DNA from: an uncultured bacterium | GTDB taxonomy: Bacteria > JAGOEH01 | Assembly (NCBI GenBank): GCA_964632485.1 | Contig: CAZWDO010000013.1 | Coordinates: 1 to 64,000 of the forward strand | Reading direction: 5' to 3' | DNA: 64,000 nucleotides | Shown: in pieces, positions 20,900 to 41,382 of the stretch | Layout of the letters: each line of letters starts with the position of its first letter | Position numbering within the stretch: the stretch's first letter is position 1 | Translations under genes and position numbers: made by a program | Notes under the pieces: model-generated | Databases searched by the model: none | Seen by the model: only the letters and a program-made list of their open reading frames with translations | What the model was told of the DNA's origin: nothing

Positions 20900-20908
20900 A
20901 AATCTTTC

Positions 20909-23761: not shown

Positions 23762-24925
23762 CTAACCGAAATATTTCAATGTCAGCGCAGTGATGTCGTC
23801 GGATTGTTCCACTCCGGCGGCATGTTCCTTGACCGTTCGTACGATCCGTTCGGTTATGGTTTTCGGCAGTTCCATTCCCAATTTTCCCAATTCAATGGCT
23901 AATCGTTGTTCGGTATATTGATCATCAGTTGCATTCATTGCTTCAGTCACCCCGTCAGTGTACAGGAACAGAGTATCATTGGGTTTAAGTTGAGTAGTAT
24001 GGCTTTGGAAGACAAAATCTTCAAATACTCCCAAGGCAATACCCCCTTTGATTGAAAGCGGCGTAACTTGTCCGTCCGGTGTAATGATAAAGGGCGGGTT
24101 ATGGCCGGCATTCGTATAAATCAGTTCTCCGCTGACGGTATCGAGAATGCCGTAGAAAAGGGTCACAAACATGGTATTGACGTTTTCCTGCGACAGGAGG
24201 GTATTCGTTCGGATGACACACTCATTGGTTGAAAACTGATTGACGGCGTTCGCGCGCATCAGGGTACGGCAGATCGCCATAAAAATCGCGGCAGGAATCC
24301 CTTTTCCGGAAACATCGGCGATGACCACTCCGATATGAGTGGGATCGACTAAAAAAAAGTCGTAAAAATCACCGCCCACCGATTTCGCGGCATCCATAAT
24401 CGCATAGATATCAAAATCGCTGCGATCCGGGAAGGGCGGAAATATTTTTGGCAATATAGATTGCTGCAATTCTCTTGCGACCGAAAGATCCTGCTGGATG
24501 GCAACTAAATGGTCATGTTCGTCCAACATGGAGCGCTGTTGCGCGACATGCTCAATCGTTTTATTGAGGGTGAGTTCTAAATCTTCAAAGCTAATGGGTT
24601 TGGTTACAAAATCAAACGCGCCGCGATTCATTGCTGCCCGTAAATTGTCCATGTCGCCATAGGCTGAAACCATCAACACTTTTAAATCGGTGCGGTCAAG
24701 TTTTTTGATTTTTTCAAGCATGGTCAAGCCATCCATTTCCGGCATATTGATATCGGAGAGCACGACCCCAATTTCCGCAACTTCGCTCAACATATTCAAC
24801 GCTTCCTGAGCGCTGTGAGCGAATACGAAATCAAAAATCCCTTTGCGAATCTGACGTCTGAAATTCATCCGAATTAACGCTTCCATATCCTGTTCATCAT
24901 CAACCGATAGAATGCGGATGCTCAT
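23762..24925 (-). CDS. Response regulator-PP2C/SpoIIE phosphatase (RsbU/RsbP-like)
   Basis: REC (VDDE, SDINMP, TKP); VGGDFYD, IADVSGKG, NAGH, YTDGVTE, SDDIT. Confidence 0.93.
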   Translation of the reverse strand: MSIRILSVDDEQDMEALIRMNFRRQIRKGIFDFVFAHSAQEALNMLSEVAEIGVVLSDINMPEMDGLTMLEKIKKLDRTDLKVLMVSAYGDMDNLRAAMNRGAFDFVTKPISFEDLELTLNKTIEHVAQQRSMLDEHDHLVAIQQDLSVARELQQSILPKIFPPFPDRSDFDIYAIMDAAKSVGGDFYDFFLVDPTHIGVVIADVSGKGIPAAIFMAICRTLMRANAVNQFSTNECVIRTNTLLSQENVNTMFVTLFYGILDTVSGELIYTNAGHNPPFIITPDGQVTPLSIKGGIALGVFEDFVFQSHTTQLKPNDTLFLYTDGVTEAMNATDDQYTEQRLAIELGKLGMELPKTITERIVRTVKEHAAGVEQSDDITALTLKYFG

Positions 24926-24950
24926 CTATAGTCTCCTTTTTGCTTATTAT

Positions 24951-27900
24951 TTAAATCTCTTCCGGGATGGTCAGAATAAATTCAGTCCATTCACCTTCCG
25001 CGGATGATACTTCCATCTTTCCTTTATGGAGTTGGGTAACAATATCATAACTCATGGAAAGCCCCAATCCGGTACCTTTGCCTGTTGGTTTAGTGGTATA
25101 GAATGGTTGAAAAATCTTTTCCCGTACAGATGGAGGCATGCCGGTTCCATTGTCACGAATCCGAATTTCCACAAAGTGTTCAATTTTATGCGTTGATAGT
25201 GTTATTTCCGGGCTAAACTCATTGCCGCTATCGGTGAGGTTTTGTTTTTTTTCATTGATGGCATAGCAGGCATTATTGACGATATTTAGGATTACGCGAC
25301 TGAAATCCTGGGGTACGATACGAATTTTCCCGACATTGGGGTCGAGATCGAATTTAAGGGACACGGTAAAATCCTTGTTATTTGCCCGTGTGCCATGGTA
25401 AGCCAGCGTGGCGTATTCCGAGACCATATTGTTGATTTCATACATCTGAAATTCAGAGGTTTTTCCCCGGGCATGCATCAACATTCCTTTGACGATTCCC
25501 TCGGCGCGCTTGCCATGGTCTTTGATTCGGGTTAGATTGTCTTTGATCATTTCCGCAAGGTCAAGTATTTCATCATAATCATCTTCCTGAAGCAATGTTT
25601 TAAATTTCTCAACATATTCCAATAGCTCGTTGGCCAGGTCAATACTTGGGCCAGAGAAATTGTTGACAAAATTGAGCGGATTTTGGATTTCATGCGCGAT
25701 CCCGGCGGTCAACTGCCCCAATGATGCCAGTTTTTCCGATTGCACCAGTTGCTGCTGAGTTGCCTTCAAATTGTTAAATGTGGCCTGTAAATCTTCCAAT
25801 ATTTTTGTCTTAATGAAGGCGGCGATAATATGTTCCTTCAGATTTTTTAACAAACTCAGGTCACGAAGGCTAAAAGCGTCCTTGCGGCTTAAGTTTTCCA
25901 GGATTAAAAACCCTTCCACTTTTTTTTCGATTTTTGCTACAATCACGACAATGGACGATGAATTTTCATAGCCATCGACCAATGGTTCGGAAGTGGCGGT
26001 TGAAAAGTCCCTGTTGATAAAAATATCTTCATACACTTCTTCGCAGTTTTTTAAATAGCGCGCTTCAGTTTCCTCTAATGTCAATTGGATATCTTCAATC
26101 TGGTTCATGTCATAAAGCAGGCTTGATTTATAGCGATAATAATCGCTACCCTTATCAATGACAAGCGCCGTGGCATTATCGACGGCTTTTACGACCTTCA
26201 TTTTCTCTAAAATTGTGTTCAGCAGATTTGTAAAATTAATCTCGGCATTGATTGATTTGACAATGAGATTAATCTTTTCGAGTTCACTGTTCTTGGATGC
26301 CAGTTCACTTGATTGTTTTTCCAGTTCCTCTTTTTGTTGGACAACTTCTGCCGTTCGATCATGAATAATATTTTCCAGTTCCTTTTTTTCTTTCATCAGT
26401 TTGATGGAGCGCAAACGGATCAATCCGGCAATAGTCAATCCGGCAAGGATTATGTATAGAAAATAGGCCCACCAGGTTCGGTACCAGGGAGGAGTGATGG
26501 TGAACTCGAATTTAACGCTTTCAAATTCAGTTTGATAAATATTTTTAGATTTAACGCGAAATCCATATTTCCCCGGGGGAAGGTTGGTATACTCCTTGGC
26601 GGATGTATTGGTCCAGTTGGACCATACTTTATCAAACCCTTCGAGGTAGTATTGAAAAAGTAATTCGCCTTTGACGTCATAACTGGTGGCGCTGTATTCA
26701 AAGAGAATCGTATTGTCGGAATAGGAGAGAGTTAATGGTTGGTTCTCGTCCGGGGTTTGATTTCCCTCAAACAGTGAAGAATCGTGGCGGATCATCACCC
26801 TACGGATCAGAACGTAAAACGGTTTGCTATAGGGGAATTCGATGGTGGGATTATAAACAAGAATGCCATCGGGGCCCCCGAACCACACTTGGCCACGGAG
26901 GTGGCGCCAAATCGACCAGACGACGAATTCTCGGTGCGGCAAAAAAGGAGTTTGAAATTTTTCATATTCGCCGTCTTTTTGTTTTTTGTACATCGTTATA
27001 TTGGTTTCATCGCCCAGAGTTGTCCAGATGTTCCCCTGTGGGTCTTCGACCATTCGGTAAAGCCATAATTCATGATTCAGTGAATCAAGTTCCAGAAAAT
27101 CATCCTTAATAAAATGATTCTCTTTTTCGTTCCAGTGGAAAATTCCGGTCTTAGCAGTTATCCATATTCCGCTGGCTAATGAATGAATGTGATTGCCGAT
27201 CAGGTCGGGGAGTCCGTTCGATGTATCGATGCGGGTCATTTTCATTGACGGGTCTTTGAGGTTAACACGATAGAGTCCATGAGACGGCGAGATCAACCAT
27301 AATCGGCCGCTTTTATCCTCGATTTGCTCTCTGAATTCAATATCTGCCGGTCCGATTCGTTTCGGATTTATTAATGTTGCACCCTCGAATTGCCAACGGT
27401 AAAACCCGTCTAATTGGCTGATATAGAGATAATTGGGCGTTAGTGGCGAATAATGCAGGTTAAGACTGAAGGATTTTGTCATCGGTGTCACTTTTTGATT
27501 TTCAATGAGGAAAACTCCCTGGCTGGTTGCCGCCCAAAGTTTTTGATTGATGTTCAACAATACCCAGCAGGTCGTTTTAATATCCTGCAATTCTTTAAAT
27601 ATAGCTTGTTCCGGGTCATAATAGCTGACGCCCTTATAAGTCGCGCAATAAATGGTCTGGTTATAGCCAATGATTTGTTGAACTCCGCCGTTGATTCCTC
27701 CGCGATCATTAAAATACATAAAAGGGGAAGGGTATTCCATCAAGGCTAAACCATTGTTAAGAGCCAGCCATATTTCATTGTTTTTGCCCGCAAAAATATA
27801 ATTGACATTATCATCGGCTAATCCTACGGATTTGTTGACGGTTTGTAAAATATGGCCGTCCGGCGCCAGAAAGATCACTCCGTTCCGAATGGTGCCGATG

Positions 27901-28700
27901 GCAATATCTCCATTTTCCAATCGCGTTCCACAGAGAAGGATGTTATCCTTAATTATAGCGGAAGATTCAATTTGCCAAGGGGTAATCGATTGTCCCTGCA
28001 ATGTAAAAAAACCCTGGTTACTAGTTCCGATCAATATTTTTTTATCGTTAATCGCGGTCATGAATGCGACGGGAACTGTTTCGGAAAATCGGTCGCCGCC
28101 GGGTACCGGGATAATTCCAGCGCGGGTGAATTCCACCAATCCCCTGGTTTTTAGCAATAAAAAGAGGCGATGATTAGCCGTAAAGCCTTTGATCAGGGGA
28201 TCCGACAAGGAATAGATTGAGAGTGTGTCGTGATGATAGGTAAATATTTTCTTATCGGACAAAAAGAATACGTTTTCATTGATGATTTCAATAGAAACGA
28301 TATCAGAAAAAACCTGGTTGGAATCGGTCAGATCAGCGGAAAGGTTGAAAAAATCCAAATTGCCAAGTGGATCGGATTTGAGGTAACCAAATTCTCCCCG
28401 GGCGCCGGCATAGATTCTTCCGGTTGAATCTGCGCACAATGAAGATATTTTAGTGATATTGGAACTGGGGATAATGCGCCAGGAAATTCCGTCATACTGG
28501 AGGATTCCGGCGAAATTGGCGACATATAGCATTCCTTGTTTATCAATGGCGATATCGAAGTTCTGACCATGGGCGCGGTACTCGCGGGTGCTGAAATTCA
28601 AAATATAGGGCGCCCCCGTTTGAGCATTCAGAAAAGCGTTTTCAAGAGATAAAAAAATCAGAATCGCTAACACTATTTTCTTGCCGGTATTAACTATCAT
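24951..28700 (-). CDS. Sensor histidine kinase: periplasmic beta-propellers + Y_Y_Y, TM, GAF-like, HisKA/HATPase
   Basis: Signal peptide, propeller repeats, KEYTNLPPGKY.F.V, PPWYRTWWAY, AGIAHEIQNPL, DNGTG, GTGLGL. Confidence 0.93.
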   Translation of the reverse strand: MIVNTGKKIVLAILIFLSLENAFLNAQTGAPYILNFSTREYRAHGQNFDIAIDKQGMLYVANFAGILQYDGISWRIIPSSNITKISSLCADSTGRIYAGARGEFGYLKSDPLGNLDFFNLSADLTDSNQVFSDIVSIEIINENVFFLSDKKIFTYHHDTLSIYSLSDPLIKGFTANHRLFLLLKTRGLVEFTRAGIIPVPGGDRFSETVPVAFMTAINDKKILIGTSNQGFFTLQGQSITPWQIESSAIIKDNILLCGTRLENGDIAIGTIRNGVIFLAPDGHILQTVNKSVGLADDNVNYIFAGKNNEIWLALNNGLALMEYPSPFMYFNDRGGINGGVQQIIGYNQTIYCATYKGVSYYDPEQAIFKELQDIKTTCWVLLNINQKLWAATSQGVFLIENQKVTPMTKSFSLNLHYSPLTPNYLYISQLDGFYRWQFEGATLINPKRIGPADIEFREQIEDKSGRLWLISPSHGLYRVNLKDPSMKMTRIDTSNGLPDLIGNHIHSLASGIWITAKTGIFHWNEKENHFIKDDFLELDSLNHELWLYRMVEDPQGNIWTTLGDETNITMYKKQKDGEYEKFQTPFLPHREFVVWSIWRHLRGQVWFGGPDGILVYNPTIEFPYSKPFYVLIRRVMIRHDSSLFEGNQTPDENQPLTLSYSDNTILFEYSATSYDVKGELLFQYYLEGFDKVWSNWTNTSAKEYTNLPPGKYGFRVKSKNIYQTEFESVKFEFTITPPWYRTWWAYFLYIILAGLTIAGLIRLRSIKLMKEKKELENIIHDRTAEVVQQKEELEKQSSELASKNSELEKINLIVKSINAEINFTNLLNTILEKMKVVKAVDNATALVIDKGSDYYRYKSSLLYDMNQIEDIQLTLEETEARYLKNCEEVYEDIFINRDFSTATSEPLVDGYENSSSIVVIVAKIEKKVEGFLILENLSRKDAFSLRDLSLLKNLKEHIIAAFIKTKILEDLQATFNNLKATQQQLVQSEKLASLGQLTAGIAHEIQNPLNFVNNFSGPSIDLANELLEYVEKFKTLLQEDDYDEILDLAEMIKDNLTRIKDHGKRAEGIVKGMLMHARGKTSEFQMYEINNMVSEYATLAYHGTRANNKDFTVSLKFDLDPNVGKIRIVPQDFSRVILNIVNNACYAINEKKQNLTDSGNEFSPEITLSTHKIEHFVEIRIRDNGTGMPPSVREKIFQPFYTTKPTGKGTGLGLSMSYDIVTQLHKGKMEVSSAEGEWTEFILTIPEEI

Positions 28701-28709
28701 ATAAAACTC

Positions 28710-31700
28710 CTATCTATCTTCATCATTCAATATTTTCTCGGTTATTGAAACATGATCGGCCATGAGGAAATAGAAATATTGGATGGGTAAGGCAATCATG
28801 CGGCTATCGGAGAGGGCTTTGAAATCTCCTTCTAAAAATTTAGCTTGTGAAAAGAAAACTTCTCCTAAACAGCTATAGGGCTGGAATTTTTGGATAGATT
28901 TTCCTTGCAGGTAAAGTTCCAACTCTCCTTCGATTAGGATAAAAAAAGTGGTATGCCACTTTTTTTTATATTCGTAAAAAAACCCTTTTTGCAGTAAAAC
29001 CATCTGTCCATCCCAGCCGAGCTGGATGAGATCGGGTACCGGAACATTTTTAAAGATGGGAAGTTGGGACAAGTGAACTATTCGATCAAACGCCGGCATA
29101 TAATCGCGGCTGGGTGTTTGCAAGTGTTCTAAAAGCATTTTAAATTTATCGGATATTGCTTTGGGAAATCGATTAAGCTGGTTCCCCGCGCGGTCAGGAT
29201 CGATTGTAGCCAGAGAAATGAAAGCGCATTCAGATAGAAATTCATCGGAATGGTAGACCATAGCGGCTAAGCCCCCCAGAGCCTTTCGATCGTTAACTTT
29301 TCCTAAAATATTTAATGCCAATGCTTTAGTCCAATAATTAATTTCGGTAAAATCCTTGGCAACGATATCCAGCAGCCGCTCTACCAGGTTTTTTTTGGGC
29401 TGAGGAAAATTTGCATGATATTTATTCAATCGCTCCTTTAAAGTCAAATCATCAAATATAGGTATCACTAAGTCTTTAATCTCCTGGCTTATAATCATAT
29501 CGCAGATTTCAAGGGCATAGCCACGCGAATCGCTGGAGCCCTGCTCGACGTTTTCACGGATAATACTGATCGTTTGGGAATCATACAATAAAGATAAAAT
29601 TGAAAAAATTTGTTCCCGCTTATTATCCAATTCATATCCCAGAGCCGCTATTAGAGTTTTTGCTCCGGAAAAGTTCTGGATATCCAGTAAACTGGCGATA
29701 ATCCAGACCATAACGGCAATCGAATCTTCCAGGCTCTGCTTGATCAGCGATTGCTCAAGGGGAGTGGCTTTGTAATTCAGGTTTTTTAACGAATGGATTG
29801 CCTGGGCTCGGATTGTTTTATCCGGGTAAGCGAGCTTGTCGCGAATATAATGGATGCTTTGATCGCCGCCAATTCGTTCCCATAGTCTGATGACCCGAAT
29901 CTGAAATGATTTGTTCTTGGAAAATTTATTAAAGTAATGATCCAATTCGGGAATAATTGGGTCTTTGATGATCCGGATGACAGAAGCCGCTTCGTTGCTA
30001 TAATCAGGGATTGCCAGATTTTCAATGACCAGAGGCCATAGTTCCACCCGTTTTATTCGGCTAGCTCCAATCAATGCCGCTTCCCGTACATCGCTATCGC
30101 TGTCTAATAAGAGATTGATAAAAGGGCGAAACGCGTTATACCGCCCGGAATACCCCAACAAAATTGCGGCTCGCTTGCGTTCCTCGGCATCGGTGGATTC
30201 TGACATGATGATCAGGTCTTCTAACGGGATTTGAGATAATTCTCTCAGATAATCGATGATTTCGTTGATTTGTGGGGATTCTTCGTGAATTTTAATCTCC
30301 TTGCTCTCGATCATCGGTAGCAATATGACCAGATTTTTTTTCTGGATCCATTCCAATATTTCTGGAAAGTGGGTCAATCCTTTTTCTTTAAGATAAAAGA
30401 TCAATAAACTGTCGGAATAAGTTGGTGTAACTTGTTCAATGATTTTTAATAGAATAGATATTCGTTCTGGTTGAATATGAGTGATCCGTTCTCGTAATAG
30501 AGCGACGTTGTTTTTTATCAGGCTGGCAGGTCTGATTTCCTCCTGTTCCAGTTTCAGGACTTCACGAAGTTTATTTCGATACTCGCGATACATCCGCCCG
30601 GAAATATAGAACCAGAATAAAGCGATCATTAAAAAAATGGCGTTTATATGGAGCAATGATAAAAAGGGGAGTGAACTGAAGGTTAGTAATAACAGCCCGG
30701 CTAAAATATTGCCGGAGGATTTTGCGGCGCCTTCGGTTTTACTTTGCAAGAGCATCCGTTGATCAACGGGTACCGGTTGATAAAGAATTTGAAATGCCGG
30801 TTCGTAAATAGCGCTGCGAATAGAACGCATGGATAATTTTTCCAGAGCGATAAACGAAAAAACCATTCCTAAAGGGCCGTAGATCAAGCCGACCAGCCCA
30901 GCCAGCGCGGCGCTTCCGGCCAGAGTTGCGGGTAATAATGTCAATCCCAGGCGAATGCCATATTTGGTCAAAAGCTTTCCGGAGAGGAGGGTTTTAATAA
31001 TAAATTCAATAATTGCCATAAAACCAAGAAAAAAACCGAGGAAACTGGTGACCATTTCGGCGTTTTTAAATTCCAGTTTGGTTTGACCCAGAAAAAGATA
31101 ATCGGAAAAACTGATTCCCAGCATAGGCAAAATGGCTAATAAGAAAATCATCAGGTAATAGCGGTCATGAAAAAAGCCCTGAAATCGTCCCTGTTTTTGA
31201 GTCTGGTTTTTATCGTTTAAATTCCCAACCTCGCTGTTTAATGTTTCATGAAAATTGTTGATAATAATAATCAGGGTAATCAGGCAACCCAACAGTCCAA
31301 AAATGGCGAACCAAAGCAAATTTTTAGTAGCTATAAACGATAATAATAGGGGGATTGAGAAAAATCCGATAATATTCGATACCACTTCGCCTGAACTGAC
31401 CAATCCAAATAACCGTTTAGCCTGCCGCAGATTAAACAATTTCCCTGCTAATCCCCAAAATCCGATGGCTGTCAGGAAAAGCAGAATTTTGATCCAAAGA
31501 TAGAGGGAGAAAATGATCCATTTTTCCTGAAAAACGAAATAGACAAGTGATAAAAGGCTGATTGAGAGCAGAAGAAAACTCGAATTGATGAGCAAAAGGC
31601 GGGAAAACGAGAGAATCCGCTGCAATGATGAATAACCCCAGGCGATCAAGTAGCCAATAATACCGCTGGCGATGAGCGCATAGGGGAGCATCCGGGTTGG

Positions 31701-31850: not shown

Positions 31851-31854
31851 GAAA

Positions 31855-32688
31855 TTAAACCTGTTCCACTGCCAACCATCTGTTGGCCATCGTAAAATAA
31901 TAATCTTCGGGGTCTTCTGGGGTTGAGCGCAAAATGCCAACCAGCGCAAATTCATCATTGCTTAGATTTATCTCTAAAATATCCGTTCTTGATACGGGGA
32001 TCAATTCAAAATCCAGACCTCGAGTATGGGTTTGTATAAAATGGGCGGTTTTTTCCTTGTCCACCCGGTTCTCAAGGAGTCCGCTTGGAGTGAGGGGCAA
32101 ACAAGCGGTAAAATTGGGTACCAGTCCATCGATATTGGCATAGAAATGATCACAAATCCAGCCGATGCGGTTTAATTGGATATAGAGTTGTTTGATGTTT
32201 TGGCAGTCGATCAGCGCGCGTTTAACCCGAGAGCCGCGTTTCATGGCTAAAAGGCAGCCGTATTGGCTTAGCAATATTCCGATATTGTTGCCGCTCAAGC
32301 CTGGATGCACTAAAAGCCTGACAGAATAGGAGGTGCGGTCCGGAGTGTCATAGCCGATCTCAAACAGGCATGCCTTGATCTGGTTTTGCGCGTCGCAAAT
32401 TAAAATTCCATTGCCAAATTTTGTCATGCGAAAGATGTCATAAACAGTTACCCAGGAGGATTTCGCCAGAGGATAGTGCTCATGAATAAATTGCTGGATC
32501 ATTTTAATATCTTCCACGAACGCCTTTCGAATCACTAACTGAAACTTTTCCAGAGTTCGGTCAATATAATCGATATAGGATTGAATAAACAGATCGCGCG
32601 GCTGCTTAAGCCATTCCTGTTCCATTGTTGTTAACGCTACCGTTATGGCTTTGGGCTTAATATAATTGACTACCATTATCCCATTCAC
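31855..32688 (-). CDS. GNAT-fold-like hypothetical protein
   Basis: VIRKA...D and LLVHPGLSGNNIG..L resemble GNAT motif A. Confidence 0.6.
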   Translation of the reverse strand: MNGIMVVNYIKPKAITVALTTMEQEWLKQPRDLFIQSYIDYIDRTLEKFQLVIRKAFVEDIKMIQQFIHEHYPLAKSSWVTVYDIFRMTKFGNGILICDAQNQIKACLFEIGYDTPDRTSYSVRLLVHPGLSGNNIGILLSQYGCLLAMKRGSRVKRALIDCQNIKQLYIQLNRIGWICDHFYANIDGLVPNFTACLPLTPSGLLENRVDKEKTAHFIQTHTRGLDFELIPVSRTDILEINLSNDEFALVGILRSTPEDPEDYYFTMANRWLAVEQV

Positions 32689-32701
32689 ACTTTCTAAGTT
32701 T

Positions 32702-35350
32702 TTAATTAAATTGATACATGAGTCGTATAATAAAATTACGGTCCTTTTGAGGGGTTCGATAGGCGTAGGAATTGCCGTCGGCTGAGCGAATCCCCGGGTC
32801 AGAATATTCTTTATTGGTGAGGTTGTTGCCGATGAATTGCAAAGTGAATCCCGGGAAAATATTATCGTAGGCGATAGTACCGTTCAGTAAAAATACACCC
32901 GGGAAATTGCCGGGATTGGCGCTGACGGAGGTTTCCGGGCCTACGGGCCGATCGGAATAATAATTCATTCTGAGATGGGTGAGAAGATGTTCCCAAAAAG
33001 TATATTGGACACCGCAATTGATCCGGTGGCTGGAAATATCGCCGATGCGTTGGTATTCTCCGGTTAAATTGCCGTTTTTGTCGAGGATGTTGTTTTGGGG
33101 ATTTGAATAGTTATAATTAGCGTAAAATTGCAGCTTGTCAAATTTCAAAGTCATTGCCGATTCAAGCCCCGAAATTTTCAGCGCTCCAATAGCGCGATTC
33201 TGGCCGGTTGTCCCGCCCTGGTAAGAAACGATGGCCGTTCCGACCACTCCTTCAGGATTTGCATAAGAATACCCGATGCGGCATATCAGTCGGTTACTGA
33301 TCTGATAGGCGATGGAGGCTTCGTAGTTATTGACTTTTTCCGGTGGCAACGTTGGGTTGCTTAGCCGACGCTGGGGAGTAATGGCATATTTAGTCCAGTT
33401 GGAGGCATTTTGGAAAGCGCGGGCATAGATCATTTTAATGATGAAACGGTTCGGGGTGAAGACCATCGCAAAGCGGGGATTTAACTGGGTGCCGTAGCCC
33501 CCGGAGACGCGGATACGGTTATAATCGTAACGGGCGCCAAGGGTAATTTTCCACCAGGGGAAGAGCCGGTAAGTGCCCTGTCCATATCCACCGATATCGT
33601 AAATCGTAAAATCGTTCGCGCCGGGAATCGTATCTCCCGAACTGCTTCCCTGTTCGATAACGCTCAACGTATCGGAATATATTTTGCGGTAATCGCCCTG
33701 GATGGAACTGTTACGGACTTCCAGCCCGGCGATCACGTCCAGCTTGGGAATGGGGTTGAAAGTGATTTTAAATTCGTTGCGGAACTGCCGGGATATCTGG
33801 TACGAATAGTAGGTATCCCATGACCCGGGGATATCTTTAATCAGGCTATCCAGGTTCAACCCTTTATTGGAATAGTTTTTAAGCACGACAGACCCTGTTT
33901 TTTCGCCAAGTTGGATGACGCGGTACTGAGCGAAATTATTCACTGAGAGGTTTTCGCTGATGACTTTATCATATTTAGCGTAAAAAAAATCTTGAATAGG
34001 GATCCATAAAGCGGCATTATCCGCCGCTGCCCGGCGGTTGTCAGGGAAATAATTGGTTGAACCGTTTTCTTCCCACCAGCTTTCGTAACCGATCACCAGA
34101 TCGCTCAGGCGAAGTTTTCCATAATAATATAGCGCATCCAGGCGGTTAGAATAGCGAATCGGCGCTCCGTTCAATTCGCCCTCAAACGCTTGTTTGTCGT
34201 AGGTTCGCGCGATCTCGACTCCGGTTTGGGTCAGACTGATACCCACCGTATCGCCCTGAGTGTTTCGTTCAATGGTATAGTACGGGTGGTTATCCACTAA
34301 ATGATGAGTCCGCGCATAGGTATTCGCCTGGCTGGTTACATTCAGAAGCGCTGCATAATCTATTGAATTGTAGTCGTCCGGATCATAATTGAATTCTTCA
34401 TATTTGGAGAGGTCCATTAAATCGGAATAGAATTTCCGCACAGTTCCGGTAAAGGCCAGGCTTTTGTATTTAGCTGCAATGGTTATGTCGCTGTAGCGCG
34501 TGTCGTAACTTCCATAGCCAAAATTGGCATTTACCCCGACACTGTGATTTCGCGCGATTTCTTCCGGTTCCTTGGTGATGACATTGACTACACCAACCAG
34601 GGCATTCGGACCGTACATTGTGGACGCCGGTCCGTAAACCACTTCAACTCGTTTGACATTTGATATGGGGAACTGTGGCGACCAGAAAATGCCATTGCTC
34701 CAAAAATCATTTTCCTCAACTCCATCCATCAGAAACAGAGTGCGTTCGGTGTTGTTGGAGCGATATCCTCGCTGATAAATATTTGAATAGGTGACCCCAT
34801 AGGTTCGTGAGACATCAAAACCGGGCAAATCGCTGAACAATGCTTCCAGATCAATATATCCACGGGCTTTGATATCCTCTTCGTTGATGATGGTGACGGT
34901 TGCCGGGGCCTCGTAGATATTTTCCGCCTTTTTAGACACTGACGTGATCATGGTTGCGCTGCCGCTTTGTTTGAGTTTATCGATCAGTTGAATATAGCGC
35001 GGCGGATCGAATACGTTTGGCTCATAATTCGGATTGAGCAACAGGAGGCGGACGGCATATTGCTGAGCGGTAACCACCGAATCCAGCGCCTGATAGGTCA
35101 GAATCAACAACCGATATCCCTGCTCCCGTTGTTTGTCCTGGAATCCAGTTTCCACACAGGGTTCCAGTAACTGGATGACCATTTCAAAATTGCCGGTCTG
35201 GTATTCCTTTAAGGCTTCTGTTAACTGTAGTTCTGAGCATTCCTGGGCATAAACGTTACCAGCGAAGAATAAAAAGATTATCATTGCAACAACAAGGGGG
35301 AAAATAACGGCAATAAAACGGTTATGGTAACTGGGGCAGTGTTTTTTCAT
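32702..35350 (-). CDS. TonB-dependent receptor with N-terminal TPR-like domain
   Basis: TSVSKK.E....PA plug start, RVEVVYGPASTMYG.NA..GVVNVITK, NNLTN..Y, terminal YQFN. Confidence 0.92.
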   Translation of the reverse strand: MKKHCPSYHNRFIAVIFPLVVAMIIFLFFAGNVYAQECSELQLTEALKEYQTGNFEMVIQLLEPCVETGFQDKQREQGYRLLILTYQALDSVVTAQQYAVRLLLLNPNYEPNVFDPPRYIQLIDKLKQSGSATMITSVSKKAENIYEAPATVTIINEEDIKARGYIDLEALFSDLPGFDVSRTYGVTYSNIYQRGYRSNNTERTLFLMDGVEENDFWSNGIFWSPQFPISNVKRVEVVYGPASTMYGPNALVGVVNVITKEPEEIARNHSVGVNANFGYGSYDTRYSDITIAAKYKSLAFTGTVRKFYSDLMDLSKYEEFNYDPDDYNSIDYAALLNVTSQANTYARTHHLVDNHPYYTIERNTQGDTVGISLTQTGVEIARTYDKQAFEGELNGAPIRYSNRLDALYYYGKLRLSDLVIGYESWWEENGSTNYFPDNRRAAADNAALWIPIQDFFYAKYDKVISENLSVNNFAQYRVIQLGEKTGSVVLKNYSNKGLNLDSLIKDIPGSWDTYYSYQISRQFRNEFKITFNPIPKLDVIAGLEVRNSSIQGDYRKIYSDTLSVIEQGSSSGDTIPGANDFTIYDIGGYGQGTYRLFPWWKITLGARYDYNRIRVSGGYGTQLNPRFAMVFTPNRFIIKMIYARAFQNASNWTKYAITPQRRLSNPTLPPEKVNNYEASIAYQISNRLICRIGYSYANPEGVVGTAIVSYQGGTTGQNRAIGALKISGLESAMTLKFDKLQFYANYNYSNPQNNILDKNGNLTGEYQRIGDISSHRINCGVQYTFWEHLLTHLRMNYYSDRPVGPETSVSANPGNFPGVFLLNGTIAYDNIFPGFTLQFIGNNLTNKEYSDPGIRSADGNSYAYRTPQKDRNFIIRLMYQFN

Positions 35351-38300
35351 AGGGAACATCCTTACTAATGTACTTATTCCACTCTTCATTGGTTAAATTG
35401 CGGGAAACTTTTTGCTGAATGAGGGGAACGATTTCTGCGCTGGCGGCCGGCCAACGCCGTATGGTCCGATCAGCGGATACTGATAGAAAATAGCGTTGAT
35501 CCGGTGTGAATTCGGTATCATAAACCCATCCATCATGCTCTTTGATCTGAATGGGAGGTTCTTCCGGATTTTTATAGTTCCAAATTCGCAGGGATTGATC
35601 GTTTGATGCGGACAACAGGATATCCTTGTTGGATGAAAAGCGTAAGGCATTGACCGTAGAGAGGTGTCCCATCAGTGGGATAGCTTTGGTATTGCTACTC
35701 TGCCGGTCGAAGAGATAAATAGCGCCCCGGTTGTCGCTAACGGCCAGATAGCGATTGTCGGACGAAATATCGATGGCCATGATCGGTTTTTTTTGGGTAT
35801 CTTGCCAAAAAACAGTTGCCTGGCGGGTATCGGAAATCAGTTTAAATAGGTTTCCATCGGCGCTACCGGCCAGAAAGGCATTCTCATCGCGTAACTCTGT
35901 CAATGAATAAATTCGTTGTGATTGTTGCAGAAGGATCTGTTTCGTTGATTGCTTTGTCGGATTATTCCATAAAAGGACGAGTCCGTCATTTCCCGCGCTG
36001 AGGATCGAGCCTTTACGAGTAAATAGTATTTTATTAATAACCGATTGGTGTCCATTGAGTTGGATTGGGACTTCATTGGGAGCTTGCAGGTTCCAGATAT
36101 AAATTGTCCCGGAAGCTGATCCTGCGGCTAACCACTCTCCCTTCATATCAATATCCAGGCTACGAATTCCATCGGACGAATTTGACGCTTTTTTTAAAAT
36201 TCGGTCCTTTTGACCGGGATTTGACAGGCTCCATTGGCGGATAGACCCGTCATCACTGCCGGTAAAGAACCAGTTTCCATTGGAGTGGATCGCCAGTGAA
36301 CGAATGGCGTCCGTGTGTCCATAATAGACAGGGCGGTTTGGTTCCACAGCGGTTAAGGCCAGATAAATATCGGGTTGGTAGGGGGGGCCGGCATTGTTCA
36401 GATTAAACTGATAAGCTTGCAGTACCATCAAAGCCGCAATATCCCATTGATTGGTGGTTTGCATAACTTTGAGTGATTGGATGGCAATGGTGCGGGCAAC
36501 GGCTAAAAAGCGTAAACGCTGAGCTTTTTGTTCTGATTGCTCGGCTTTTACACGTTCTTTGTCGGCGATTTGCCGCTGAGAAACAGCATCTTTGCGTTGA
36601 TTTTCCGCTTCATCGCGGGCAGAAATTGCTTGCTTTTGCGATACCTCGGCCCGCTGCTTTTGAACCAGCGCTTCCTGACGCTGTGTTAAGGCGTATTGGC
36701 GCTGCTCTTCGGTAATAATTCGCTGTTGCTCGGCGATTTGCTGCTGTTGTTCCGATATCTTTTTCTGAAGAATCGCTTCTTTGCGCTGTTCAGCCGCTTT
36801 ACGACTTTCTGTGGACGCGATTTTCTCTTTTTCTAAGGCAATTTTTTCACTGCTTTCCGCTTTGTAGCGCAAATTGACGGAGATAATCAGAAATAGTAGT
36901 GAGATGATCGACGCAACTCCTAAAATTATGGCGAAACGGCGCGCCCATTGAAGTTGCCTTCTCTGTTGCTCCTCTTTGCGGGCAATTTGCAGTTCATATT
37001 CTTTTTTGCTATATTCCAGAAAATCGATAGCCCGTTCAAAAGCCGGATCATAACGCCGCGCCCATTCTTCATTTGGATGATAATCCTGAAACCAGCGTAA
37101 ACCCAGTTCCAGCTCAGGATTGACCCAAAGACCCGCTTTGCCCTGCTGATAGAGTTCGGCTGAACGTGAGAGCCGTACATAGAGTTGCGCGGATTGGGCT
37201 TCTTCTTCCACCCATTGTTTCAGACGAGTCCAAATCCGCATCAGACTTTCGTGCGAAATGTCGATCATCGTTTGCTCGCTCAAGGGAATTTTGTTGGGTG
37301 GCATGAGAAAGGCTCGACCTACTTCCCGAAACATATCGATAACGGTGATAATATCTTCTAATTGTCCGTTGGCCAGCGAGGTGATTTCCTTCAAACGGGT
37401 CGGGCGGCGGATTGGTTTTTTATCATCTCCCATTTCAGTCAGCGCTTTGAACATTTTTTCCGCATAAAATTTATGTTGGGGATTCGGCAAAGCCAAATAT
37501 ACTTCTTCTGCATGAAGCGATAGCGCCTCTTTAACCGTCCCGACCGCTTCGTAGTGGACAATATCTACCGATTGATTTTCGGAGTGATTGATTTTCCAAT
37601 AATCCCAGGTCCTCATCAACGCGTGCTGAAGTACCGGAAGTTGATCCGGATCATTTGATACATCCAGTAATAACCGTTGGACCAACTGTTCCGTAATTTC
37701 GCCTTCGCAAACCTTGATCGGACCCGTAATGGCTTTTCGCATTTCCTGCGACGTCATCCGGGGTACCAGGTAGTTGCCGTTGTTGATCATTTCGGGCAAA
37801 CCCGGGAAATCGGTGCATTGATCTAAAAAATCGGAACGCATTGTCAGCACGATAAAAATAGGAATCTCTTTTTGGCGCGCGGCATTTAAAAACAGAGTGA
37901 CGAACTGGTCCAGTATCTCTTTAGTATATTCGGGATTTTCAACCTGCTTGAAACGGAATATTTCCTCAAATTGGTCAATAATCACCAGTCGGGGACGCGG
38001 GATATCCGCATTCTGCTCCTTAATCAGGTCGATTAAACCATTTTCACCCAATCGGAGCCTTTCATTGTAAGCCGCTACCGTAATGGGATCATACCCCCCC
38101 ATCCGTTGCATATAGACGGCATCGGAAAAACTGAGCAAATTGAACATGTTGGTCAATTCCTCGCGTAAAGCCGTTTCCTCAGATTTTATAGAGTTGGATA
38201 TCATCTGCGTACTGCGGAATAAGGCTTCGCTAAGATTCCGATAGGGATCATCGCCGGGACGGAAAAGTGTTAATTGCCAGTTGCCGGGATAGCTCTCCAT

Positions 38301-38513
38301 CTTGCCATTGAATAAAGAAGGCACCAGACCGGCACGGACCAAAGAGGATTTTCCGCTTCCGGAAGCCCCTACAACCGCTATAAAGTGAGACTCATTGAGT
38401 TTTTCCACTAATTCCTGAATCTGTTTTTCCCGGCCAAAGAATAAATAGTCTTCCCCGGCCTCATAACTCCTGATTCCAGGGAAAGGGTTCAGATTATGAA
38501 TGATGTTTTCCAT
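35322..38513 (-). CDS. nSTAND1-type NTPase - TM - coiled coil - WD40 propeller
   Basis: NPFPG.RSY...FFGR, GASGSGKSS, IIDQFEE, TMRSDF, LPVLQHAL, ISHESL; TM FAIILGVASIISLLFLII; Q/E/R coiled coil; GH...W WD40 repeats. Confidence 0.93.
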   Translation of the reverse strand: MENIIHNLNPFPGIRSYEAGEDYLFFGREKQIQELVEKLNESHFIAVVGASGSGKSSLVRAGLVPSLFNGKMESYPGNWQLTLFRPGDDPYRNLSEALFRSTQMISNSIKSEETALREELTNMFNLLSFSDAVYMQRMGGYDPITVAAYNERLRLGENGLIDLIKEQNADIPRPRLVIIDQFEEIFRFKQVENPEYTKEILDQFVTLFLNAARQKEIPIFIVLTMRSDFLDQCTDFPGLPEMINNGNYLVPRMTSQEMRKAITGPIKVCEGEITEQLVQRLLLDVSNDPDQLPVLQHALMRTWDYWKINHSENQSVDIVHYEAVGTVKEALSLHAEEVYLALPNPQHKFYAEKMFKALTEMGDDKKPIRRPTRLKEITSLANGQLEDIITVIDMFREVGRAFLMPPNKIPLSEQTMIDISHESLMRIWTRLKQWVEEEAQSAQLYVRLSRSAELYQQGKAGLWVNPELELGLRWFQDYHPNEEWARRYDPAFERAIDFLEYSKKEYELQIARKEEQQRRQLQWARRFAIILGVASIISLLFLIISVNLRYKAESSEKIALEKEKIASTESRKAAEQRKEAILQKKISEQQQQIAEQQRIITEEQRQYALTQRQEALVQKQRAEVSQKQAISARDEAENQRKDAVSQRQIADKERVKAEQSEQKAQRLRFLAVARTIAIQSLKVMQTTNQWDIAALMVLQAYQFNLNNAGPPYQPDIYLALTAVEPNRPVYYGHTDAIRSLAIHSNGNWFFTGSDDGSIRQWSLSNPGQKDRILKKASNSSDGIRSLDIDMKGEWLAAGSASGTIYIWNLQAPNEVPIQLNGHQSVINKILFTRKGSILSAGNDGLVLLWNNPTKQSTKQILLQQSQRIYSLTELRDENAFLAGSADGNLFKLISDTRQATVFWQDTQKKPIMAIDISSDNRYLAVSDNRGAIYLFDRQSSNTKAIPLMGHLSTVNALRFSSNKDILLSASNDQSLRIWNYKNPEEPPIQIKEHDGWVYDTEFTPDQRYFLSVSADRTIRRWPAASAEIVPLIQQKVSRNLTNEEWNKYISKDVPYEKTLPQLP

Positions 38514-38585
38514 AAGCGTGAATCATTCCTTTACAGCCTGAGTGTTGAAGGCCAATACCGGGTAAAAATCCCGATTCTCTATTTG

Positions 38586-38614
38586 ATTATAACGCATCCG
38601 CATCCTTTTGTCAA
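38586..38614 (-). promoter_or_regulatory. Perfect-consensus sigma70 promoter for the nSTAND operon
   Basis: TTGACA-aaaggatgcggatgcgt (17 bp)-TATAAT, ~70 bp upstream of ATG 38513. Confidence 0.8.
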
Positions 38615-40464: not shown

Positions 40465-40901
40465 TTAACCCTTGCGTTCTTCCAGAAATTTTTTCATTGT
40501 CAGTTCATTGCGGTCATCAATACGCTGGTAGTTGACTTCATCCATGATCTGTTTGATCATATAGATACCGAGACCGCCGATTTGGCGTTCTTCCAGCGGC
40601 GCGTCAATATCCGGATCCTCTTTTCCAACGGGTTGTATGAAATGCCCTGGTCGATAATTTTAATAAAGAGCCCTGCCGGGTCATGAAGTTTGTCGCAAAC
40701 CACTTCGATTTTCCCTTCCTGATCCTCTTGATTCTCTCCGTAAGCATAGTTAATGACGTTCATTAAAGCCTCTTCGCAGGCTAAATGGATACGATTGATA
40801 GATTGACTGTGGAACCCGCTATTTTCTGCTTCCTTGCGAATAAAATAGATCATAGTATCCAGATTATCTGCGATAGCGGAAACGATTAACTGATCGGACA
40901 T
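40465..40901 (-). pseudogene. rsbW: RsbW-like anti-sigma factor kinase with a single-base frameshift
   Basis: LACEEALMNVINYAY and IIDQG.SYNPL in frame 1. EDPDIDAPLEERQIGGLGIYMIKQIMDEVNY...KG* continues in the -1 frame after the A4 run at 40621-40624. Confidence 0.85.
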
Positions 40902-41270: not shown

Positions 41271-41382
41271 ATCACCTTCCTTTTTAACGGACAATTAAGT
41301 CATTTTACATCTGTCTTACATGAATGCTCGTAAATTCCAATATACAATAAAAAAAGTATCTGTCAAGTTTTTAAAAAAAAAA

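Follow-up and report, generated by a model that had tools for sequence, protein, structure and literature searches.

A conserved STAND NTPase and outer-membrane barrel gene cluster that may encode a new kind of cell-surface signalling device

The window, the whole 64 kb stretch of DNA analysed here, contains six co-oriented ORFs on the minus strand, spanning 23762-38513, as the initial annotation had placed them. The first (gene 1, 35322..38513) encodes a STAND NTPase with nSTAND1, TM, stalk and WD40 regions, assigned by Pfam and topology. It is followed by a TonB-dependent receptor (TBDR) with a TPR-like N-terminal extension (gene 2, 32702..35350; Pfam Plug and TonB barrel), a 277-aa cytoplasmic GNAT-fold protein (gene 3, 31855..32688; predicted structure), a protein with a polytopic NTT/TLC (Npt1)-kind membrane domain, HEAT repeats and a cNBD-like domain (gene 4, 28710..31850), a Reg_prop/Y_Y_Y/HisKA/HATPase_c sensor histidine kinase (gene 5, 24951..28700; Pfam) and a response-regulator receiver fused to a PP2C (SpoIIE-type) phosphatase (REC-PP2C; gene 6, 23762..24925; Pfam). 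The original domain calls for all six genes hold under HMM annotation, with fold added for the GNAT, and the TPR-like extension of the receptor is confirmed. The junctions, a 29-nt overlap followed by gaps of 13, 4, 9 and 25 nt, are exact with the starts that the initial annotation presupposed, M14 for gene 2 (position 35350; longest ORF 32702-35389) and M37 for gene 4 (position 31850; longest ORF 28710-31958). This spacing suggests a single transcript of ~15 kb for the six genes.

A consensus promoter had been claimed ahead of the cluster, and a perfect TTGACA-17-TATAAT match does lie on the minus strand at 38586..38614, 72 nt ahead of the start codon of gene 1; 0.01 such matches are expected in a window of this size (64 kb), and this one has no second. 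This promoter is not conserved in sequence across related loci, whose best matches ahead of the STAND gene reach 7-10 of 12 positions. Three further same-strand genes (STAS, RsbW-like and porin-like; gaps of 33, 34 and 111 nt) lie upstream, behind a second sigma-70-like match (TTGACA-16-TATATT, 11 of 12; minus strand, 41339..41366) that is a possible start of the whole unit. The unit is thus probably larger than first reported and would begin at the STAS gene, with the RsbW-like kinase and porin genes between it and the STAND gene.

The STAS gene (40935..41294, minus strand) encodes a 119-aa anti-sigma-factor antagonist of the RsbV/SpoIIAA type (TIGR00377, E 7.3e-23, 80.5 bits against a cutoff of 53.45; Pfam STAS, E 3.3e-19), with a Ser in a SYVSSAGL stretch that we take to be the usual phosphorylated position. 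The adjoining RsbW-like serine kinase/anti-sigma gene (HATPase_c_2; 40465..40901, minus strand) carries a 1-nt frameshift near 40620-40623 in the window, with an N-terminal ORF at 40557-40901 and a C-terminal part in another frame whose stop is at 40465-40467. Contigs from three public runs (X1, X2 and X3; depth 3-5) have one extra base at this frameshift, which would restore an intact protein of ~145 aa. The third gene (38625..40430, minus strand) encodes a 601-aa exported protein that is probably an outer-membrane barrel (Alginate_exp, E 2.6e-4, 20.3 bits, below the cutoff of 25.2) and has no counterpart in the related loci compared.

The STAND protein contains nSTAND1 at residues 10-458 (Pfam E 6.8e-92), with Walker A (GASGSGKSS) and Walker B (DQFEE) both intact and no N-terminal effector or adaptor domain. 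One TM helix (residues 528-546) is followed by a stalk of ~120 residues (552-671) with Ala at every seventh position and by a WD40 propeller (residues ~727-1041) that is predicted to be periplasmic. Exactly one hydrophobic segment is present in 27 of 29 STAND-family ORFs, flanked by 4-8 K/R on the N-side versus 1-4 on the C-side, and across 19 stalk sequences one heptad register is 83% Ala and the others at most 18%. The placement of a TM helix and periplasmic stalk between the NTPase and the WD40 propeller indicates that the sensor looks outward.

Gene 2 encodes, in order, a signal peptide, the N-terminal extension, a TonB-box-like ITSVS stretch, a Plug and a 22-strand-type barrel. The extension (~95 residues) consists of five TPR-like helices with invariant C38 and C65; the Pfam search gave no match to the STN signalling domain (PF07660), and matches to every characterised NCBIfam receptor fall far below cutoff. 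Full-length STAND-TM-WD40 loci, collapsed at 90% identity, represent 19 lineages, and in all 19 a barrel gene with the same N-domain, behind a signal peptide and with two invariant Cys, lies immediately downstream of the STAND gene. The barrel is a TBDR in 10 lineages and an OMP_b-brl protein in the other 9, the latter ~367 aa long and with only the N-domain in common with the TonB receptor, which suggests that the transport barrel is dispensable and the STAND contact module is not. In a reciprocal search of 401 genomes, 13 of the 14 strongest N-domain matches (E <= 6e-32) adjoin STAND matches, and the fourteenth has a truncated TM-coiled coil-WD40 gene as its neighbour. Judged from these sequence comparisons, the invariant core is a STAND-TM-coiled coil-WD40 protein with an adjoining barrel that carries a two-cysteine TPR-like N-domain.

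A complex model places the receptor N-domain on the WD40 face with a score of 0.83 (best of three controls, 0.00), which is the model's own confidence and not a measurement. In a calibration whose counts hold here only roughly, since our own alignments went into the model, this mark was attained by 58 of the 80 solved complexes and by 2 of the 110 mismatched pairs. Contacts agree between runs at 96% or more, with a partner pLDDT of at least 79. Conserved residues are not enriched at the predicted interface (permutation p 0.16 for the WD40 and 0.42 for the N-domain), and the conserved residues among the contacts, D755, D972 and W996, may have a structural role in the WD repeats. The strict adjacency, the N-domain common to two barrel types and the complex model together favor the physical outer-/inner-membrane link proposed at the outset, and we infer that the STAND WD40 face may hold the receptor N-domain, linking the two membranes.

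Gene 3 has no Pfam or NCBIfam match. Its predicted structure (pLDDT 88.9) matches GNAT acetyltransferases, and a distant homologue in locus L046 matches Pfam GNAT models. The gene 3 family is rare and lacks a Pfam model. Gene 4 matches Pfam HEAT_2 and, weakly, MFS_1 and cNMP_binding; Pfam recognises no TLC domain in it, and TLC, HEAT_2 and cNMP_binding are found in the Atlas clusters nearest to it. The cNBD-like domain is degenerate, being below the Pfam cutoff and without the phosphate-binding Arg. NTT-HEAT-cNBD and STAND proteins co-occur almost perfectly in the 401-genome sample: the 13 NTT-HEAT-type genes (E <= 1e-80) are found in 8 genomes, every one of which has a STAND gene, and for 11 of the 13 the distance to a STAND match is about 7 kb or less.

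Gene 5 combines exported Reg_prop propellers and Y_Y_Y with a TM segment, a linker of ~230 residues, HisKA (H-box AHEIQNPL) and HATPase_c; no receiver and no DNA-binding (AraC) domain was found by Pfam. Gene 6 matches SpoIIE (E 5.3e-50) and Response_reg (E 1.8e-22) in Pfam, and its best NCBIfam match, far below cutoff, is Pseudomonas-type RssB. With the terminal REC-PP2C, the upstream STAS and RsbW-like genes make a complete partner-switching set; no sigma factor or other RsbW target was found in the 64 kb window. The REC-PP2C gene follows the kinase gene in this locus and in L017, L024, L031 and L046, and STAS and/or RsbW genes occur in or beside this locus, the L013 group, L024, L027, L031 and L046. 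The partner-switching output originally suggested for the REC-PP2C protein is strengthened by the STAS/RsbW-like genes here and in L024, L027, L031 and L046.

The STAND-TBDR-GNAT-NTT/HEAT/cNBD-kinase cluster recurs wholly or partly in 10 distinct lineages of Ignavibacteria, Kapaibacteria and Bacteroidales MAGs at 32-47% identity. The same order, STAND-TBDR-GNAT-NTT-kinase, is found in 8 of 10 type I lineages, and STAND, TBDR and gene 3 are adjacent in 13 of 15 loci anchored on gene 3, the other two being short contigs. Gene-neighbourhood comparison bears out the expected co-location in other FCB-type genomes, the cluster being conserved among uncultured relatives of Bacteroidota; no published description of this arrangement was found in the literature searched. 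The distribution is patchy, with STAND matches in 17 of the 401 sampled genomes. STAND, gene 3 and NTT are missing from the two other genomes of the host's small phylum, which argues against a lineage-wide housekeeping system. The modules of the cluster are separable. The Kapaibacterium-type locus consists of STAS-STAND-TBDR-GNAT only, its NTT gene lying on a separate contig without kinase or PP2C; L046 is without NTT, and PP2C was not found in the fetched flanks of L014, L020, L026 and L027.

The observed gene content, order, conservation and co-occurrence of parts are best read as a new kind of cell-surface signalling device. We put at roughly 0.5 the probability that the locus encodes a conserved trans-envelope apparatus resembling cell-surface signalling, with a STAND NTPase in the place of the anti-sigma factor. 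In such an apparatus, the TonB-dependent receptor in the outer membrane would present a disulfide-bridged TPR-like N-domain to the periplasm, and the STAND protein, anchored N-in by its single TM helix, would reach across the periplasm by its alanine-heptad stalk (~120 residues, about 18 nm if continuous) and grip the N-domain with the face of its WD40 propeller. When ligand binding or damage changes the receptor or the outer membrane, the WD40 contact would be altered and the NTPase switch in the cytoplasm would flip; as for other STAND proteins, this flip would involve nucleotide exchange or oligomerisation. The NTT-HEAT-cNBD protein would be a cytoplasmic/inner-membrane partner of the STAND protein, probably via its HEAT scaffold, and the GNAT could serve the same pathway with a small amine or a protein lysine as its substrate. 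In this locus the Y_Y_Y histidine kinase would phosphorylate the REC-PP2C protein, whose phosphatase would dephosphorylate STAS, which would then titrate the RsbW-like kinase off its target. According to the available portions of the papers concerned, signalling from a receptor N-domain to an inner-membrane regulator is established for TonB-dependent transducers (PMC2729926, PMC11637429), and that from a kinase through REC-PP2C to a partner switch for Bacillus cereus RsbK/RsbY (PMC9912610).

It is unlikely that the cluster is instead an NLR-like defence or conflict system comparable to Avs/nSTAND, in which the STAND protein senses an invader or envelope attack and triggers a costly response, either growth arrest via the partner switch or nucleotide loss via the NTT protein. 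Such a role would fit the patchy distribution (17 of 401 genomes, missing in two phylum-mates) and the definition of the nSTAND1 clade in predicted counter-invader systems, as given in the accessible parts of PMC8195603 and PMC10907252. A TIR_2 + DUF4062 gene lies directly upstream of STAND in 11 related loci, one of which (L028) also carries a TBDR, and one copy weakly matches PADLOC ThsB (E 4.6e-6). A type VI secretion cluster begins 3 kb upstream on the opposite strand, but this adjacency is absent from all other loci compared. The cluster itself contains no effector domain (TIR, nuclease, protease, EAD), its PADLOC matches are only weak (mad8 E 1.1e-5, mad3, AriA) and confined to the N-terminal NTPase region, and no flanking mobile-element genes occur within the window. 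In addition, what the sensor propeller is predicted to face is an outer-membrane protein of the cell itself, and gene order is stable over 32-47% identity, unlike that of fast-turnover defence islands. The non-self or threat surveillance suggested by the initial annotation is not supported, there being no meaningful PADLOC match and no effector domain in the cluster. Surveillance is hinted at only by sister loci in which a TIR/DUF4062 gene adjoins that for the STAND protein.

We consider it quite improbable that the locus is a nutrient or cofactor uptake regulon with the STAND protein as an accessory regulator. The TonB receptor would then import a scarce nucleotide-like or amine compound, the NTT carrier would take it across the inner membrane, the GNAT would acetylate it, and the Y_Y_Y kinase and REC-PP2C would tune expression, comparably to Y_Y_Y sensors in Bacteroides polysaccharide loci. 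A TBDR with intact Plug, barrel and TonB-box-like stretch, an inner-membrane carrier-like protein and a small-molecule acetyltransferase fold do all adjoin, and Reg_prop/Y_Y_Y sensors are typical of glycan-sensing regulators. The NTT family includes proven nucleotide and NAD carriers (PMC5381601, in its available part). However, an OMP_b-brl protein of ~367 aa replaces the TonB receptor in 9 sister lineages with the N-domain kept, the TBDR is far below cutoff for every characterised NCBIfam receptor, the kinase lacks both a receiver and an AraC output, and the cluster is without SusD, binding protein, hydrolase or catabolic enzyme. No characterised nutrient-uptake regulon of such content, the match that the initial annotation had named as counting against its proposal, was found in the literature searched. 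Least plausible, and very unlikely, is a juxtaposition on one strand of units that do not work together, namely a STAND-barrel pair, an NTT-HEAT-cNBD gene and an ordinary kinase/REC-PP2C/STAS/RsbW stress pathway. Each unit is found without the others somewhere (L013 group, L046, G043:C49, type II loci), but the five-gene order is shared by most type I lineages at 32-47% identity and the gaps here are -29 to 25 nt. REC-PP2C and STAS/RsbW adjoin the cluster in several lineages, sometimes upstream, sometimes downstream or on the opposite strand, as would be expected if linkage were selected for and not if a single arrangement had been inherited.

The proposed signalling device resembles the TonB-dependent transducers (FecA-FecR-FecI, FpvA/FoxA types) in its receptor with an extra periplasmic N-domain before the TonB-box region, in a neighbouring gene whose product, a single-pass inner-membrane protein, is predicted to bind that N-domain through its periplasmic part, and in its proposed output, the release of a sequestered regulator. 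It differs in that the N-domain is a two-cysteine TPR-like five-helix domain and not STN, the place of the FecR-type anti-sigma factor is taken by a STAND NTPase that bears a coiled-coil stalk and WD40, and the output genes are of the partner-switching type, with no ECF sigma gene here. The Tol-Pal/TonB connectors (TolA stalk, TolB propeller) presumably offer a likeness to gene 1, being anchored in the inner membrane, spanning the periplasm by a long helical stalk and touching an outer-membrane partner with a beta-propeller; here, in contrast, anchor, stalk and propeller belong to a single protein chain that also contains the cytoplasmic STAND NTPase, and the cluster has no ExbBD/TolQR-type motor genes. 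Bacteroides hybrid two-component systems, which we assume to share with gene 5 a Reg_prop/Y_Y_Y periplasmic sensor and a nearby TonB receptor gene, differ by their fused receiver and AraC DNA-binding domain, and their loci by SusD and glycoside hydrolases, all missing here.

As in the B. cereus RsbK-RsbY-RsbV-RsbW system, a histidine kinase, REC-PP2C, STAS antagonist and RsbW-type kinase are encoded together; REC-PP2C relatives include HsbR and RssB. Unlike that system, the set has no sigma-B gene or other visible target here, its kinase has an exported Reg_prop/Y_Y_Y sensor, and it is embedded in an envelope-protein cluster of a diderm FCB-type organism. Gene 4 has the same three-part layout as the NTT-HEAT-cNBD fusions of Major, Embley and Williams (2017, PMC5381601), save that its cNBD is without the phosphate-binding Arg; the available portion of that paper reports the fusions as uncharacterised and mentions no link to STAND or outer-membrane genes. 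A 2020 conflict-system paper (PMC7159879) mentions none of nSTAND, TonB, translocase, DUF4062 or outer membrane. Gene 1 shares with the nSTAND1/STAND conflict NTPases (Kaur, Burroughs, Iyer and Aravind; PMC8195603, as far as its available text goes) an nSTAND1 domain followed by a C-terminal repeat sensor (WD40). Unlike them, it has no N-terminal effector or adaptor and carries a TM helix and stalk between NTPase and sensor, and instead of peptidases or nucleases its conserved partners comprise an outer-membrane barrel and an NTT-HEAT-cNBD protein.

Six open reading frames on the minus strand, from 23762 to 38513, occupy the positions where the initial annotation had placed a trans-envelope STAND operon, and its junctions (a 29-nt overlap followed by gaps of 13, 4, 9 and 25 nt) are reproduced with starts at M14 in gene 2 and M37 in gene 4. 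Both starts give sensible N-termini, the former a signal peptide and the latter a first transmembrane (TM) helix. Five of its six domain descriptions are directly backed by Pfam and NCBIfam models: nSTAND1 and WD40 in gene 1, a TonB-dependent receptor (TBDR) in gene 2, HEAT_2 with sub-threshold MFS_1 and cNMP_binding in gene 4 (NTT-HEAT-cNBD), Reg_prop, Y_Y_Y, HisKA and HATPase_c in gene 5, and Response_reg with SpoIIE/PP2C in gene 6 (REC-PP2C). The promoter ahead of gene 1 (38614..38586) is a perfect TTGACA-17-TATAAT, the sole match in the window against 0.01 expected. It is a feature of this genome only, since 28 related loci, scanned over the 250 nt 5′ of their STAND genes, give matches of just 7–10 of 12 positions at best. 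Inside the cluster, promoter-like sites (47 found, 39.4 ± 6.0 expected) and terminator-like sites (19 found, 20.4 ± 4.4 expected) are at chance level. The gene unit is probably larger than the six genes described. Three further genes lie upstream on the same strand, namely a STAS antagonist (40935-41294; TIGR00377 above cutoff), an RsbW-like HATPase_c_2 gene that is frameshifted in the window (40465-40901) and a 601-residue exported porin-like protein (38625-40430), with spacers of 33, 34 and 111 nt and a second promoter match (11/12) ahead of them at 41366..41339.

On the far side of the STAS gene, minus-strand genes for a SPOR-domain protein, a 402-residue unknown protein and a lipoprotein lead towards it. 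Diverging from these is a T6SS run that starts at 44130 on the plus strand with a gene of the TssK/VasE family (PF05936, E 1e-49) and extends to about 63000 as a string of large co-oriented ORFs, one of them of 1342 residues (46352-50380); no T6SS genes were seen adjoining the related loci. A terminator-like hairpin at 42063-42082 with the tRNA-like core GGTTCGAACCC was considered as an integration site and rejected, as it falls within the ORF of the lipoprotein and shows no match to the tRNA-Pro gene at 6981-7055. At the opposite end, 3′ of a convergent M20 peptidase gene, four tightly packed co-oriented minus-strand genes (19077-22142) encode two proteins without a Pfam match (196 and 217 residues), a TPR protein (371 residues) and a PrsW-family intramembrane protease (236 residues).

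The co-location of these genes in other genomes, on which the operon proposal depended, is borne out. With gene 3 as an anchor, eight loci were retrieved from genomes and seven from metagenomes; in every one of the 13 whose flanks are long enough, homologues of STAND, TBDR and gene 3 are adjacent and in the same order. Where a locus carries an organism title, its MAG is labelled as Ignavibacteria, Kapaibacterium or Bacteroidales, apart from two MAGs that are probably mis-binned. The NTT-HEAT-cNBD and Y_Y_Y kinase genes come next in L014, L017, L019, L020, L024, L026 and L027 (L numbers denote related loci), and L017 and L024 have REC-PP2C after these. Sampling was repeated independently with 401 evenly drawn genomes from the phylum of L020, searched with the N-terminal half of the STAND protein. 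Matches at E <= 1e-40 occur in 17 of these genomes, with open frames of 1030–1087 residues at 13 of the places, in nine genomes; all ORFs of 17 regions taken from STAND matches were clustered. A search of 40 other genomes with gene 1 gave nothing beyond WD40-level matches. The window's phylum is represented by three genomes in the collection, and the cluster, gene 3 and the NTT gene included, is absent from the other two. Gene content, order, conservation and co-occurrence are direct observations.

After collapse at 90% identity, and with six Kapaibacterium-type loci counted as one lineage, 19 lineages harbor full-length STAND-TM-WD40 loci. Ten, including the window, pair the STAND gene with a TBDR (type I) in the order STAND-TBDR-GNAT-NTT-kinase. 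The TBDR is followed by a GNAT in nine of the ten (the gene 3 family in eight, another GNAT in L031), while L028 has a PhzF-like gene in its place; the kinase is present in 8/10, REC-PP2C in 4/10 and a STAS gene within the flanks in 5/10. The remaining nine lineages (L029, L030 and L032-L038, from the Bacteroidota genomes G155, G259, G355, G403 and G423, with two loci each in all of these except G259) carry a small OMP_b-brl barrel next to the STAND gene (type II). Their order is OmpH-like, NTT, TIR_2/DUF4062 (about 475 residues, not in every locus), STAND, OMP_b-brl (about 367), a protein of unknown family (about 430) and a very large protein of 2100–3260 residues. The OmpH-like gene (family c17) is found in 4/9 (L029, L030, L035 and L038), and the one large protein scanned, that of L033 (2394 residues), contains PKD and Por_Secre_tail, a type IX secretion tail. 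The TIR_2/DUF4062 gene is also found directly 5′ of genes for nSTAND1 proteins that end differently at the C-terminus (L039-L043: TPR repeats in L040, and forms of 1019–1432 residues without a WD40 match), which suggests a general pairing of TIR with nSTAND1 in that phylum. In L046 (12509-15744) a gene for a 552-residue WD40 protein without the NTPase half directly follows a Mutator-family transposase gene; the other genes there (TBDR, GNAT, two for kinases, REC-PP2C, RsbW and STAS) are intact. A natural NTPase-less variant was considered here, but with the transposase directly upstream a disrupted copy is more likely.

Gene 1 matches nSTAND1 (PF20703) over residues 10-458 (309.5 bits, cutoff 27.1; E 6.8e-92). 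The Walker A residues G49, G52, G54, K55 and S56 and the Walker B stretch D180-Q-F-E-E184 are invariant in 19 sequences. A single hydrophobic segment lies near residue 490-545 in 27 of 29 STAND-family ORFs, flanked by 4–8 K/R on its N-side and 1–4 on its C-side. With the NTPase necessarily in the cytoplasm, the stalk and WD40 domain beyond this segment should be periplasmic. The stalk (residues 552-671; window 36500-36860) places Ala at every seventh residue through about 17 heptads. Across the 19 orthologues this register is 83% Ala, against 18% or less in the others. At a helix rise of 1.5 Å per residue its ~120 helical residues would span roughly 18 nm. Such unusual regularity, which invites comparison with packing of the alacoil type, may be of structural interest in itself. 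The names attached to STAND homologues at their source ("Hat/HatR carbon uptake", "EcfA2", "FtsN") were dismissed as uninformative transfer annotations.

Gene 2 is a TBDR in both Plug (PF07715, 69.3 bits) and barrel (PF00593, 66.1 bits), each above cutoff. No STN-type signalling domain matches it, and no genes for a FecR-type anti-sigma or ECF sigma factor occur among the ORFs of 19–46 kb. All type I TBDRs instead carry a conserved extension of ~95 residues with two invariant Cys, located between the signal peptide and a TonB-box-like ITSVS. Homology to this extension is also seen at the N-terminal end of the small barrel of type II loci (BLASTP 1e-16 to 1e-12), and C6, G21, C33 and A63 are invariant in an alignment of 20 sequences of the domain, here called the handle. 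Its predicted structure consists of five helices (pLDDT 84.5). The best match among PDB profiles is to a TPR design (E 1.5e-4), and in Foldseek TPR proteins head the list at E >= 0.068, with no match at E <= 0.001. These weak matches, together with the profile match, are consistent in pointing to a weak resemblance between the modelled handle and TPR proteins.

Among the 401 genomes, 40 have handle matches, of which the 14 strongest (E <= 6e-32) stand clearly apart from the rest (E >= 1e-22). Thirteen of the 14 adjoin STAND matches, and the last, in L046, adjoins the 552-residue gene, which encodes a TM segment, coiled coil and WD40. The STAND gene is always followed by the handle, mounted on two unrelated barrel types. 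A weaker tier (E 1e-22 to 1e-12) comprises ORFs of about 200–600 residues in genomes without a STAND match (G172, G348, G352, G397, G160, G300, G404, G408 and G081), with five to six copies each in G172 and G348; these may represent a broader outer-membrane or periplasmic family with a related TPR-like domain.

A complex model, one of the checks proposed in the initial annotation, gives a favorable result for the WD40 domain and the N-terminal domain of the receptor. The WD40 domain (residues 660-1063, 19-row alignment) and the handle (20-row alignment) scored 0.83, against 0.00 for the best of three controls; that mark is reached by 58/80 solved complexes and 2/110 mismatched pairs, counts that are rough here given the custom alignments. 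At least 96% of contacts are common to the runs, with partner pLDDT of at least 79. The predicted contacts include G53, D90 and the D-P motif at 115-116 on the handle (residues 36-130) and the WD40 face around residues 735, 755, 952, 972 and 996. A WD40-handle contact is supported in silico. It is a point against it that conservation at the predicted interface does not significantly exceed that elsewhere in the two domains (p 0.16 for WD40, 0.42 for the handle).

Gene 3 matches no Pfam or NCBIfam family model. Its AlphaFold model, built from ten homologues (pLDDT 88.9), has SpeG, PaiA and other GNATs as top Foldseek matches (E 5e-8 to 1e-6, target TM 0.6–0.78), and its distant homologue in L046 matches Acetyltransf_7 and Acetyltransf_1 in Pfam, so the label GNAT was right. 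The family contains an invariant motif-like stretch, R124...G133-x-N-x-G137, and is rare, with 10 clusters in a search of 5.8 billion proteins. The label Npt1 for gene 4 is plausible: its nearest ESM-Atlas clusters are cNMP/HEAT/TLC proteins (score 0.98–0.99; TLC in 69–97% of members), whereas Pfam gives no TLC match (PF03219) even at E <= 5 and MFS_1 remains below cutoff at 25.4 bits. The cNBD scores 20.9 bits against a cutoff of 27.5. A canonical cAMP or cGMP ligand for this cNBD-like domain is doubtful, because the phosphate-binding Arg (R-[ST]-A after the GE motif) is absent in 13/13 aligned orthologues. NTT-HEAT-type genes (13 at E <= 1e-80) occur in eight of the 401 genomes, all eight of which have the STAND gene, and for 11 of the 13 a STAND match is no more than about 7 kb away. 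In the ninth genome with STAND, the locus contains a shorter NTT-like ORF, and in the Kapaibacterium-type genome the NTT gene is on a separate contig, without kinase or PP2C. The conserved core is defined by three parts: the STAND-TM-stalk-WD40 protein, a handle-bearing barrel and NTT-HEAT-cNBD.

With the STAS and RsbW-like genes and the terminal REC-PP2C (SpoIIE E 5.3e-50), a complete partner-switching trio is encoded in the locus, the RsbU/V/W-type combination of PP2C, STAS and HATPase_c_2 kinase. The N-part of the RsbW-like protein matches HATPase_c_2 with 39.7 bits (cutoff 27.4). Its 1-nt frameshift at 40620-40623 is probably an assembly or consensus error and not a pseudogene. Contigs of three public runs, at low depth (3–5), each supply one extra base, which is a T after 40620 in X1 and a G after 40623 in both X2 and X3; the gene is therefore probably intact in the population, although X1 provides no independent support, because it may be the sample behind the window assembly. 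Among the annotated neighbors there is no sigma-factor domain, one possible target of the RsbW-type protein.

The best reading of the locus, to which we assign a probability of about one half, is a device resembling cell-surface signalling. The receptor handle would be held by the periplasmic WD40 domain of an inner-membrane STAND switch, and a change at the outer membrane would be converted into a change of NTPase state in the cytoplasm, with the NTT-HEAT-cNBD protein and the GNAT acting with the switch. In the window's lineage, the Y_Y_Y kinase, REC-PP2C, STAS and RsbW could supply the output through partner switching, or modulate it. We infer the topology, the phosphotransfer, the dephosphorylation of STAS and any connection of the STAND switch with the kinase branch. 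The strongest argument for physical cooperation between the STAND and barrel proteins is the handle, which on two barrel types is always 3′ of STAND, and a mere juxtaposition of units is improbable.

The initial annotation had gone further and proposed a surveillance pathway for non-self or threat. The conserved core and the in-silico contact uphold its interpretation in part, whereas no effector and no known PADLOC system were found. An NLR-like defence system would be consistent with the patchy distribution and with the TIR/DUF4062 neighbor, present only in sister loci. At this locus, however, none of the nine genes contains a TIR, caspase, trypsin, nuclease or EAD domain, and gene 1 starts with its NTPase. 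PADLOC-DB 2.0 gives nothing meaningful: among seven locus proteins there are only weak matches to mad8 (1.1e-5), mad3 and AriA, all confined to the NTPase part at the N-terminus of gene 1 and none in the other six, and five sister-locus proteins are assigned to no known system. We consider a defence system unlikely. Slightly less probable is an uptake regulon, a reading weakened because the type II loci lose the transport barrel yet keep the handle.

A broader form of the signalling-like reading is that the core represents a previously unrecognised class of NLR-like trans-envelope receptors that monitor the outer membrane. In such receptors an alanine-zipper stalk would span the periplasm and a WD40 "hand" would grip a handle on interchangeable barrels. 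Phage adsorption, contact-dependent attack or ligand capture could break or change the grip and so switch the ATPase. Outputs would be lineage-specific, either TIR/DUF4062 (Bacteroidia-type loci) or, as here, a GNAT with a kinase/REC-PP2C partner switch, and NTT-HEAT-cNBD could be a common nucleotide-handling effector. That all these parts hold jointly is doubtful. STAND/NLR-type switches are known as cytoplasmic sensors, and to our knowledge all known cell-surface signalling relies on FecR-type anti-sigma factors. If the signalling-like reading is right, these loci would be a third design in the FCB group, namely direct sensing of the outer membrane by an NLR-like ATPase. They would also give a first functional context to the widespread, uncharacterised NTT-HEAT-cNBD proteins of free-living bacteria, and to a new handle domain of outer-membrane proteins for which any genome can be searched. 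The reading makes predictions about topology, a defined protein-protein contact and the phosphorylation state of STAS, which bear on the route from envelope events to partner-switching regulators in diderm bacteria. As the system is compact and the carrier genomes in the sample consist of one or few contigs, it may be experimentally tractable.

Precedents exist for each half of the signalling-like model. TonB-dependent transducers (PMC2729926 and PMC11637429) are a precedent for the receptor half, and RsbK/RsbY partner switching (PMC9912610) for the output half. In passages of PMC8195603 and PMC10907252, nSTAND1 is placed in predicted conflict systems with effector domains. The NTT-HEAT-cNBD fusion is described and left uncharacterised in PMC5381601, whose passages on it contain no mention of a STAND or outer-membrane link, and PMC7159879 makes no mention of nSTAND, TonB, translocase, DUF4062 or outer membrane. 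The combination of STAND NTPase, TonB-dependent and WD40 was not found in the main text of open-access papers and preprints. TonB-dependent transducers have an STN domain and FecR/ECF sigma neighbors, whereas here a handle takes the place of the former and neither neighbor is present. The hybrid two-component systems and PULs of Bacteroides share the Reg_prop/Y_Y_Y sensor with the present locus, but its kinase has no fused REC or HTH_AraC output and the locus has no SusD. The families are all known, and for their arrangement no description was found in the open-access literature.
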